Assembly (NCBI GenBank): GCA_018238545.1
Contig: JABCTC010000017.1
Coordinates: 1-64,000 of the forward strand
Length of the DNA stretch: 64,000 nucleotides
Origin: Candidatus Heimdallarchaeota archaeon
GTDB lineage: Archaea > Asgardarchaeota > Heimdallarchaeia > Heimdallarchaeales > Heimdallarchaeaceae
Direction of reading: 5' to 3'
Every line of letters begins with the position of its first letter. Position 1 is the stretch's first letter. Below are positions 32,046 through 33,605 of this stretch, piece by piece. The notes below the pieces were generated by a model. That model was not told the origin of the DNA and did no database searches. It saw nothing but the letters and a program-made list of their open reading frames with translations. The translations under genes were made by a program, and so were the position numbers.

Positions 32046-33113
32046 ATGAAAAAAGGTAAAACAAAACAAATTGCAAGTATTTTCATTGTTTTAGCATTGA
32101 GCTTTGGTGCTATCCAAGCACTATCTACTCCAGTTTTTGGTACGATTGCTGTGCGAATGAGTAATGATAAAACAATAAATACTAGTATTGCTGTATTAGA
32201 ATCAAATCTAGAAGATTTAAAGATTGTTGATTATAATACATTAGAATTCGCGATTGAAATATCTCGAATCGTTGGACCAGTCATCTGGGTTGGTCATGGA
32301 AATACTGATGGGATCGAAACAGCTGATACATCTATTTCTTGGGATGATTTTTCAAGTAATATTAGACGAACAGCAGCATCAGATTACGTCCTATCGTGTT
32401 ATTCCAGTAGTTTAATAGAACAAACAACACTCGATCATAACGATGCACTAACCTTTGAAGGCGAAGTAGATAGCACTTTAGGAGCATTAATTGTATCATA
32501 TTACTGTAATCCATCATTATCAATTGTACAAGATGCATTATCTCATATAAGTGCTCTTCAAAATAAGAGAGTCGCTTATACTCCACTACCATTCGAGTTA
32601 GATCCTGGTGATGGTGGTGGTGGCGGTGGCACCCCCCCCCCTCCTCCTTCTGTGGTTTGGGCGAATCCTAACACACCAGGTGCAGGATTTACAGCAGGTG
32701 AAATCGCTTTACATGCAATAATCATCTTTCTGCTACTTCTTTCTATTTTCTCAGTTGGTTATGCAGCTTATGTCGGATGTGTAATTACTACTGCATTTCT
32801 AATTGCTACAGCTTCTCTAGCTTCTTTCATTGTATCAGCATTGATTGTATTTCAAGACTGGTTTAATGGAGATTCTTCAAACTTAGAGTTCGTTGGTGAT
32901 CTCCTTCTTCTTATCCCAGCTGTGATGGCAGTATATGGAGCTACAATCGTTCTACTCGATGTAGCGGCAGCAGTTCTTGCTGCAATTATATTTGGTGTAG
33001 AAATTGCTGTGAAAGCTACTATTGGTATAGCAGTATGGATTGCGATGATAGTGGGACTGATTGCTGCAATTGTTTATGAAATTGATAATGCTTTAAAAGA
33101 TTGGATTGATTAG
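32046..33113 (+). CDS. Secreted CHAT/caspase-like peptidase fused to a hydrophobic C-terminal domain (putative toxin precursor)
   Basis: Signal peptide; WVGHG and VLSCYS dyad; G6/P5 linker; ~4 long hydrophobic helices. Confidence 0.6.
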   Translation: MKKGKTKQIASIFIVLALSFGAIQALSTPVFGTIAVRMSNDKTINTSIAVLESNLEDLKIVDYNTLEFAIEISRIVGPVIWVGHGNTDGIETADTSISWDDFSSNIRRTAASDYVLSCYSSSLIEQTTLDHNDALTFEGEVDSTLGALIVSYYCNPSLSIVQDALSHISALQNKRVAYTPLPFELDPGDGGGGGGTPPPPPSVVWANPNTPGAGFTAGEIALHAIIIFLLLLSIFSVGYAAYVGCVITTAFLIATASLASFIVSALIVFQDWFNGDSSNLEFVGDLLLLIPAVMAVYGATIVLLDVAAAVLAAIIFGVEIAVKATIGIAVWIAMIVGLIAAIVYEIDNALKDWID

Positions 33114-33134
33114 CGAAGTGGAGAGGATTCCTTG

Positions 33135-33605
33135 ATGAAGCCAAAAATAGAAACTGAAGAACAGATGATTGAAAACGAAAAGAAACACACCAAACTACAT
33201 ACTTTATTACACACAAAACAACATTCCTACTATAGTTTATTCCAACATTTTTTGTTAGCTATTATGCCATTAGCATTGTTCACTTACCAAGGTTTTAGAG
33301 AAGATTTCTACTGGTTTTTTACCCCAATCTTGTTTAGACTTATGGTAATACTTTATCTTTTGATTATCATTGTTGTTTACTTGATAACTAAGAAAAGAGA
33401 TGTACTATACATGATTATTGTCTGTACGCTTGAATTCCCTCTATTTGTGTTTCTAGCATATTGTGACCAGATGATAACTCTTGCTACCCTAGTTGTGCTA
33501 GGAGGATTGGTGTATATAAGAGAACCTCTAAAAACACATGCAAAACGAGCCATGGACCTTAAGCTAGCTAAAAAACAGTTAAAGCATGAAAAACAACACC
33601 ACTAA
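33135..33605 (+). CDS. 4-TM membrane protein (putative immunity protein)
   Basis: About 20 bp downstream of the toxin-like gene; four hydrophobic segments. Confidence 0.55.
   Translation: MKPKIETEEQMIENEKKHTKLHTLLHTKQHSYYSLFQHFLLAIMPLALFTYQGFREDFYWFFTPILFRLMVILYLLIIIVVYLITKKRDVLYMIIVCTLEFPLFVFLAYCDQMITLATLVVLGGLVYIREPLKTHAKRAMDLKLAKKQLKHEKQHH

Follow-up and report, generated by a model that had tools for sequence, protein, structure and literature searches.

Polymorphic toxins that depend on Sec for export often carry a caspase-like releasing peptidase just upstream of the toxin at the C-terminus (Zhang et al. 2012, PMC3482391), and contact-dependent inhibition (CDI) systems include polymorphic ionophore toxins, folded as membrane-spanning helical bundles, together with very hydrophobic and highly polymorphic immunity proteins (Halvorsen et al. 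2024, PMC11630599). Here a two-gene locus from a Candidatus Heimdallarchaeota archaeon is compared with these systems. It lies at 32046-33605 of a 64,000-nucleotide stretch of DNA (positions 1 to 64,000 of contig JABCTC010000017.1, GenBank assembly GCA_018238545.1; hereafter the window), and encodes a 355-residue protein with a peptidase-like domain and a membrane module, followed by a 157-residue membrane protein. By analogy, we lean towards reading the locus as a protease-tethered membrane toxin with its cognate membrane immunity protein, in other words as a two-gene cassette of polymorphic toxin/immunity type from a family specific to Asgard archaea. This reading is favoured because of the export-and-processing half of the protein, the sharp junction, the exchangeable module and partner, the orphan modules and orphan partners, the arrays, the patchy multi-copy spread and the mobile DNA described below. 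In the papers searched the family is not described, nor is any system of antagonism or kin discrimination that is specific to Asgard archaea. L-numbers are used for the loci of relatives and P-numbers for proteins, and G000 is the genome of the window.

A preliminary description of this DNA had proposed a self-processing archaeocin, made of a secreted caspase/CHAT-like protease and a pore-former-like domain, with an adjacent immunity gene. The elements that it named, namely the signal peptide, the WVGHG and YVLSCYS motifs with their spacing, the FEGEVD motif, the ELDPGD-G6-T-P5 linker, the helical C-terminal part and the gene with four transmembrane (TM) helices, are all present, at the following coordinates.

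31868..32045, plus strand: conserved upstream region (promoter/5' leader) and left end of the two-gene cassette, with 83-99% DNA identity to L003, L007, L049 and L050; the sequence further upstream is unrelated.
32046..33113, plus strand: main gene, 355 aa, with export signal, peptidase-like domain, Gly/Pro linker and four-helix membrane module; AlphaFold2 (AF2) model with a mean predicted local distance difference test score (pLDDT) of 85.
32046..32126, plus strand: predicted signal peptide or signal anchor, residues 1-27, read from the sequence as a K-rich start, a hydrophobic core and ALS/TP.
32127..32594, plus strand: minimal clan-CD-like (caspase/legumain/CHAT-like) Cys-His domain as predicted, residues 28-183; model pLDDT ~97, best structural match the CHAT domain of 8tl0.
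32295..32297, plus strand: codon of His84 in WVGHG, candidate catalytic His, invariant in 130/130.
32397..32399, plus strand: codon of Cys118 in YVLSCYS, candidate nucleophile, invariant in 130/130; a weak hhalign alignment pairs it with the Peptidase_C14 catalytic Cys.
32469..32471, plus strand: codon of Asp142, a conserved acidic residue after strand 5 (kept in 124/130) that may be an S1-pocket residue.
32595..32702, plus strand: linker ELDPGD-G6-T-P5 (residues 184-201) and pre-membrane motif SVVWxNPNxPGAGFTxGE; recombination breakpoint, marked by a drop in DNA identity, and putative processing region; the orphan module of L049 starts inside the linker.
32694..33110, plus strand: exchangeable C-terminal membrane module of four hydrophobic helices (from the AF2 model) and an acidic tail ending in DWID.
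33132..33605, plus strand: partner gene, 157 aa, ~4 TM helices, candidate immunity protein, also found behind the homologous gene in L003, L007, L049 and L050.
33617..33652, plus strand: T-rich run resembling a terminator, at the right-hand limit of the shared cassette; homology to L049/L050 ends at ~33650.

The main protein begins with MKKGKTKQ, a 19-residue hydrophobic stretch and ALS/TP, and Pro29 is kept in 97 of the 130 aligned family members. Its Ala/Ile/Val/Gly-rich helical part comprises ~140 residues, with the model helices at 217-242, 246-273, 289-321 and 328-354, and the partner reading frame starts 18 nt past the stop codon of the main gene. Neither the main protein nor the partner was matched by a Pfam, NCBIfam or PADLOC model or by a PDB sequence.

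Comparison with the closest relatives showed the main gene to be a mosaic. The DNA identity to L003 and L007 is 88-98% from ~31885 to ~32700, and falls to 40-55% across the membrane module, with 55-75% for the partner gene. At the protein level, five relatives are 88-97% identical in the N-part, their C-parts being 33-44% identical between types, and relatives with an N-part identity of 90-92% have C-modules that are just 33-36% identical. Other pairs in the family are discordant in both directions (N-part 88% with C-part 48%; N-part 54% with C-part 73% for L033/L037), and in discordant pairs the two halves of one gene show a different synonymous divergence (dS), from which it follows that the gene halves recombine. 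The linker and the pre-membrane motif form a sharp and conserved junction between the conserved N-part and the variable C-part, as in polymorphic toxins. In comparison with L049 and L050, homology is limited to ~31900-33650, from the promoter to the T-rich terminator, and the flanks are unrelated; the gene pair is therefore a discrete 1.75-kb cassette.

A second line of evidence comes from C-modules that lack a protease half. The most decisive result is that of L049, where, behind gene and partner, an open frame without a start codon (L049:2273-2812) begins inside the linker (LD-G6-STPP..SVVWTNPNIPGAGFTTGE), continues through four helices and ends in DWQD. Its identity is 79% to the C-part of P0005, the full-length L003 gene, as against 39% to the resident C-part and to P0001, and the start of a partner gene of the second type lies behind it. 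The same arrangement is present in L050, an independent assembly. Orphan C-cassettes with a partner of their own, able to displace the resident C-terminus, are a further feature of polymorphic toxins, and here the same module type is found fused to a full-length gene in L003. In the genome G053 (L046), three 5'-truncated copies without the His half lie beside a full-length gene. The minus-strand genes annotated in public records at L049:2278-2787 and L050:2027-2494 correspond to an open antisense frame of the orphan module; they are likely mis-annotations, since antisense frames stay open in Gly/Pro/Ala-rich regions.

Taken as they stand, the compared sequences indicate that the C-terminus is not a passive anchor but the exchangeable part of the protein. 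The preliminary description had suggested a check of homologues for a conserved protease with variable C-termini, and this is borne out by the sharp breakpoints, the orphan module with its partner, the tandem arrays and the polytopic gene downstream in about half of the loci. For the pore-former-like character that it gave to the C-terminal domain, no described pore former was matched in sequence or in fold, and the structural matches were generic helical hairpins (Z 8-9.4, below what is meaningful for helical proteins).

In pilin-type antigenic variation, silent cassettes feed an expressed gene, and the silent cassettes described here resemble that arrangement. The locus might accordingly be a variation system of a surface or membrane complex exploited by viruses, in which silent cassettes are recombined into an expression site and alter a receptor or block superinfection, with no toxin involved; the CRISPR-like mini-array carried by the window element would be in keeping with this. 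We consider it highly improbable, as the exposed protease domain is the conserved part of the protein, the variable part consists mostly of buried helices with very short loops, and the possession of a partner gene by each cassette fits a toxin/immunity logic.

The window, L049 and L050, as the closest relatives, were compared for the ratio of non-synonymous to synonymous substitution rates (dN/dS). The N-part gives a ratio of 0.15-0.26, the partner one of 1.06-2.1 and the C-part one of 2.6-9.5, with 13.5-18.5 non-synonymous and 0.5-2.5 synonymous changes in the C-part (Fisher p ~3e-5 for the contrast of C-part and N-part). The variable residues are spread over the linker and the whole membrane module, and are densest at ~293-343 (TM4-TM5).

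A polytopic open reading frame (ORF) on the same strand comes next in about half of 26-30 loci, and also in tandem gene-partner arrays. Across loci the partners are 160-320 aa long with 3-6 predicted TM helices (mostly 4-6), and form at least four mutually unalignable groups; the ten partners searched matched no known family in Pfam, NCBIfam, PADLOC or PDB sequences. In the few informative pairs, partner identity follows that of the C-module and not that of the protease: a pair with N-part identity 0.92 and C-part identity 0.36 has a partner identity of 0.48, and pairs with C-part identities of 0.84-0.92 have partner identities of 0.76-0.95. A ladder of His residues, H-x3-H-x3-H-x3-H (HTKLHTLLHTKQH), occupies residues 19-31 of the window partner (33186-33224) and is kept in the homologues of L003, L049, L050 and L048; it could be a metal-binding or an amphipathic helix. 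The L048 homologue is an orphan partner in the genome of the window (L048:1371-1833, contig C119, minus strand). It is 56% identical, nearer to the L003 type (second type), and frameshifted near its 3' end; no protease gene lies nearby, and directly upstream is a 324-aa surface protein with FG-GAP/thrombospondin-type-3 repeats and a C-terminal TM helix.

To identify further homologues, a profile of the N-domain was searched against 1.84 billion representatives. The family comprises 266 representative clusters, 144 of them at E<=1e-10 and nearly all with a length of 300-400 aa; a word-based search alone had yielded six relatives. All members with a named source are from Asgard archaea, in metagenome-assembled genomes (MAGs) of the Heimdall or Thor groups, and one named Heimdallarchaeota MAG with a family member belongs to the same genus as the genome of the window. 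Among the sampled genomes of the phylum, the domain is present in 97 of 399, with a patchy distribution that includes 10 of the 23 from the genus of the window. Many genomes contain several copies, up to eight matches among the eight candidates scored per genome, and several genomic matches to the domain contain in-frame stops. Searches of 127 members against Pfam, NCBIfam and PDB sequences gave nothing meaningful, and the family is unannotated in them; one member matches glycine-zipper Pfam models.

Full-length members share a near-universal architecture, in which an N-terminal hydrophobic helix and the domain are followed, often after a Gly/Pro/Ser linker, by 2-6 predicted TM helices; a few have no TM helices above the threshold used. 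About half of the members have an acidic C-terminal motif, D-hydrophobic-x-D/E, directly after the last TM helix. It takes the form D-(F/W/Y)-x-D, in many cases extended to D-x-(D/N)-x-x-V-G as the last residues, or DWxD, as in the window protein, whose acidic tail (33078-33110) ends in DWID; the motif resembles a Ca-binding loop or a processing signal. A few members add PKD, Ig or Hint domains. In P0106 (residues 364-511) and P0127 (residues ~493-643), a Gly run and a Hint-like domain come after the membrane module and the acidic motif; this domain starts with G(n)-C-V-x-x-N-T, and its matches to PT-HINT and Hom_end_hint are sub-threshold. A second copy of the main gene in the genome of the window (L002:1447-2560, contig C103) is frameshifted in an A-run between signal peptide and domain, and is followed by an unrelated 281-aa protein with five TM helices (P0011). 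The named Heimdallarchaeota MAG encodes, 1 kb upstream of its 388-aa family member, a 668-aa paralogue that combines a single TM helix with a divergent version of the domain (L004:5048-7054; G025:C148:6535-7044); the 388-aa member has no polytopic partner behind it.

The N-domain contains the sequence hallmark of clan CD peptidases. His84 (in VIWV-G-H84-G) precedes Cys118 (in DYVL-S-C118) by 34 residues, and each residue ends a hydrophobic strand. Both are invariant in the 130-sequence alignment, Gly follows His84 in 119 of the 130, and Gly85, Gly89, Ser120 and Asp142 are conserved at >=90%, so that the motifs noted in the preliminary description are not due to chance. Asp142 belongs to the motif FEGEVD..GA...YY at residues 137-153.

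The AF2 model was built from an alignment of 127 sequences, an input of seven sequences having given a pLDDT of 48, and has a pLDDT of ~97 for residues 30-180. Its elements follow one another as b1(33-37)-a1-b2(58-62)-a2-b3(79-82)-His84-small hairpin(89-91, 96-98)-a3-b4(113-116)-Cys118-a4-b5-two helices. By definition, the caspase/haemoglobinase fold has its His behind b3, its Cys behind b4 and a small sheet placed between b3 and a3, on a core with the sheet order 2-1-3-4 and helices a1-a3, in which the His is followed by Gly (PMC4357240). The secondary-structure order of the model agrees with this fold as regards the order along the chain. In a Foldseek search with the N-domain, the CHAT domain of the SAVED-CHAT protein 8tl0 was the first match (E 1e-3), with legumains, the MARTX cysteine protease domain and caspase-7 after it. 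A second, independent structural aligner gave Z 10.0-10.2 for CHAT 8tl0 (143-146 residues, root mean square deviation 4.0-4.2), Z 8.5 for legumain and Z 7.8 for OaAEP1.

The model thus makes it probable, in our judgement with fair assurance, that the N-domain is a minimal Cys-His domain of clan CD type. The CHAT family profile PF12770 matched neither the main protein nor family members, so the likeness to CHAT is one of fold only, and there is likewise no PDB sequence match. The domain is called clan-CD-like, and it is not a member of any described family. With reference to the positions of S1 residues in legumain and caspases (PMC4357240), the position of Asp142 resembles that of S1-pocket residues, and speculatively the P1 residue might be basic or Asn, not the Asp of the linker suggested in the preliminary description.

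Several other assignments of the N-domain were considered and rejected. Against an alpha/beta-hydrolase (HG and a nucleophile elbow), Cys118 lacks the flanking small residues of such an elbow, and the folds matched are of caspase or flavodoxin type. In DJ-1/PfpI proteins, glutamine amidotransferases and pyroglutamyl peptidases the Cys precedes the His, and these were dropped for that reason. Sortases and L,D-transpeptidases share the His-then-Cys order but have beta folds, as opposed to the alpha/beta domain here. A GPI8-like transamidase was raised by the legumain similarity alone and found no support, and a lead to DUF6345 from a protein atlas (score 0.87) was too weak. A canonical, orthocaspase-like Peptidase_C14 gene is present in the genome of the window (G000 contig C62:9269-9757, L071; E 5e-14), and is unrelated to the family in sequence.

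The surroundings of the window cassette include a serine recombinase, winged-helix proteins and a repeat array, and its cargo region is bracketed by two copies of a small gene.

31162..31349, plus strand: left copy of a 188-nt direct repeat (small gene without a start codon).
34268..34455, plus strand: right copy of the 188-nt direct repeat, within a 79-aa ORF (34237-34476), 80% identical to the left copy.

The left copy encodes the same protein as the 79-aa ORF, without a start codon. Further ORFs in the bracketed region are one of 88 aa for a membrane protein (31362-31628) and one of 116 aa on the minus strand (33718-34068). At 36261-36529 lies a tandem array of 3.5 copies with a period of 76 nt, consistent with a CRISPR-like mini-array. 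At L093-L095, longer Hint-bearing relatives with partners of 297-306 aa lie between DDE transposases; the L003 cassette is located among metabolic genes.

Such surroundings, with a recombinase-bearing island in the window and transposases around L093-L095, could suggest a membrane toxin/antitoxin acting in cis in the service of mobile elements (addiction, abortive infection or holin/antiholin-like), in which the helices harm the host unless held by the partner, and the external protease is a trigger or sensor. The module would naturally enter the membrane of its producer, and the partner is co-transcribed, as such a system would have it. We nevertheless regard this as very unlikely: other copies have ordinary chromosomal genes as neighbours, no relatives of the family turned up in a scan of IMG/VR, PADLOC gave no matches, and orphan cassettes with allelic replacement are hallmarks of discrimination between cells, not of addiction. 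A viral lysis cassette (S-layer protease and holin) was also rejected, the family being chromosomal, multi-copy, arrayed and absent from the viral contigs scanned.

For the toxin/immunity reading, we propose the following mechanism, in which proteolysis, the cleavage site, toxicity, immunity and delivery are all drawn by analogy. The N-terminal signal would export the main protein, placing the clan-CD-like peptidase domain outside the cell, tethered by the flexible Gly/Pro linker to a four-helix module with an external acidic tail; judging from the charge distribution, the protease would be outside together with the acidic loop between TM3 and TM4 and the acidic tail, with almost nothing in the cytoplasm. 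The peptidase may cut in or near the linker and so release or activate the helical module, which, by analogy with CDI ionophores and colicins, would be a membrane-depolarising toxin. The downstream gene would provide a cognate polytopic membrane partner that neutralises the module within the membrane of the producer and its kin, and transfer of the module to another cell might occur by contact or vesicles. The C-module and partner would be swapped jointly as a cassette by recombination in the linker/pre-membrane motif, silent orphan cassettes being retained beside some loci.

A number of observations weigh against this reading. Concerning the peptidase, PurE and flavodoxins are interspersed among the caspase-like Foldseek matches of the N-domain, and with the second aligner PurE (Z ~8.5-8.8) and the Rossmann folds of LacI/PBP (periplasmic-binding-protein type; Z ~8) score near the clan CD matches. 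No clan CD family profile in Pfam or NCBIfam matches the N-domain, in the main protein or in the 127 members (C11, C13, C14, C25, C50, C80 and CHAT were considered). In hhalign, the probability was 0.1% against an alignment of Asgard CHAT domains and just 5% against Asgard Peptidase_C14, a weak match in which Cys is in register with Cys. Of the caspase/CHAT-like protease first proposed, the invariant His and Cys, the order of the fold elements and the top match to CHAT remain, but CHAT and caspase profiles do not match and PurE-like folds score nearly as high.

Concerning the module and partner, the dN/dS values above 1 rest on ~27 changes and are borderline with respect to neutrality (p 0.02-0.06), and at deeper divergence the dN/dS of the C-part is 0.15-0.5; this is purifying selection, and the C-part is therefore a functional domain. 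The covariation of C-part and partner (Spearman) is underpowered, with few informative pairs, most of them saturated. The adjacent multi-TM immunity gene of the preliminary description holds for about half of the loci, but the other half have no polytopic gene directly downstream. Helices of such strong hydrophobicity behind a Sec-type signal would be expected to enter the membrane of the producer itself, and no delivery machinery or route is evident. Most of the family relatives are from metagenome contigs. Finally, the C-termini are one kind of module, with several TM helices, and not a set of unrelated toxins. Taken as a whole, the first proposal is partly supported.

Some of the same observations could be accommodated by a surface protease that is anchored in the membrane and serves housekeeping or remodelling, such as the processing of S-layer or other surface proteins, in which the helices are only an anchor, the downstream protein is an accessory or regulator, and the mosaicism reflects weak constraint and gene conversion between paralogues. 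The family-wide recurrence of the multi-TM architecture and acidic tail, the purifying selection on the C-part at longer divergence, the extracellular PKD or Ig domains of some members and the loci without an adjacent polytopic gene all suit such a protein. An anchor, on the other hand, leaves unexplained the start-less orphan C-module with its own partner, and does not account for the partner identity that tracks the type of C-module, the tandem arrays, truncated copies and patchy multi-copy distribution with pseudogenes, or the confinement of dN/dS >1 to TM4-TM5 and the partner. We therefore think this explanation unlikely, and retain the protease-tethered toxin with its immunity protein as the favoured reading.

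Asgard archaea are the closest known relatives of eukaryotes, and competition and kin recognition in these slow-growing, syntrophic cells are little known. A widespread multi-copy family now offers a concrete and testable candidate in the form of a 355-aa protein and its 157-aa partner, and would extend the caspase-like fold by a very small, extracellular branch in a lineage that is often discussed with regard to how eukaryotic proteolytic signalling arose. Should the module prove to be a toxin, it would show that a toxin logic of cassette swapping evolved in archaea with parts of their own. Tentatively, and with slightly less than even confidence, we hypothesize that this is the first polymorphic toxin/immunity system for self/non-self discrimination that is specific to Asgard archaea, in which a hitherto unrecognised, minimal extracellular caspase/legumain-like protease family releases or arms a swappable, membrane-inserting helical toxin and a cognate polytopic membrane protein gives immunity, with diversification by cassette displacement and spread by mobile elements; if true, it would be a candidate for the first weapon of this kind to be specific to the archaea related to eukaryotes.

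Among archaeal systems, the halocin C8 precursor ProC8 (summarised in bioRxiv 10.64898/2026.07.27.741052) is similar in being an exported precursor, whose proteolytic cleavage yields a hydrophobic antimicrobial peptide and an immunity function. ProC8 differs in its use of Tat export and in that a single polypeptide includes the immunity part; it lacks a protease domain of its own and a multi-TM module, and has no sequence relationship to the family described here. In comparison with clan CD structures (CHAT 8tl0, legumain and asparaginyl endopeptidase (AEP) 5obt and 5h0i, the MARTX cysteine protease domain 3gcd, and caspase-7), the N-domain shares the His-Gly and then Cys at strand ends and the small hairpin between b3 and a3. 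At ~155 residues, with a His-Cys spacing of 34, it is smaller than any solved clan CD domain among those listed here and, unlike those enzymes, is predicted to be extracellular and membrane-tethered.

The C-module resembles the CDI ionophores of CdiA-CT/CdiI systems (PMC11630599) and the pore-forming colicins, which have polytopic immunity proteins, in being a non-polar helical bundle long enough to span the membrane, with strong sequence variation within one fold class, orphan modules, and a hydrophobic polymorphic partner immediately downstream; the orphan layout in L049 and L050 is that of cdiA-CT/cdiI and rhs loci. In contrast to these toxins, it has four helices as compared to five or ten, no sequence or convincing fold match to them, and no CdiA/CdiB or Tol/Ton apparatus or entry domain, and its partners (157-320 aa, 4-6 TM helices) are larger than CDI immunity proteins.

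In comparison with Sec-dependent polymorphic toxins, the family is archaeal and apparently limited to Asgard archaea, its proteins are very short (355 aa) and devoid of repeats or a filament, it carries a single class of membrane module where those systems have many toxin folds, and it has no profile match to Tox-Caspase, C80 or CHAT. It shares with them (PMC3482391) the signal peptide, the (here putative) His/Cys alpha/beta peptidase directly upstream of a variable C-module, the adjacent variable partner, the orphan C-terminal cassettes and the recombination at a conserved pre-toxin motif. The cassette logic is thus known from bacteria, and what is new is the minimal extracellular clan-CD-like domain, as predicted here, the four-helix module with its acidic tail, the polytopic partners and the host lineage.

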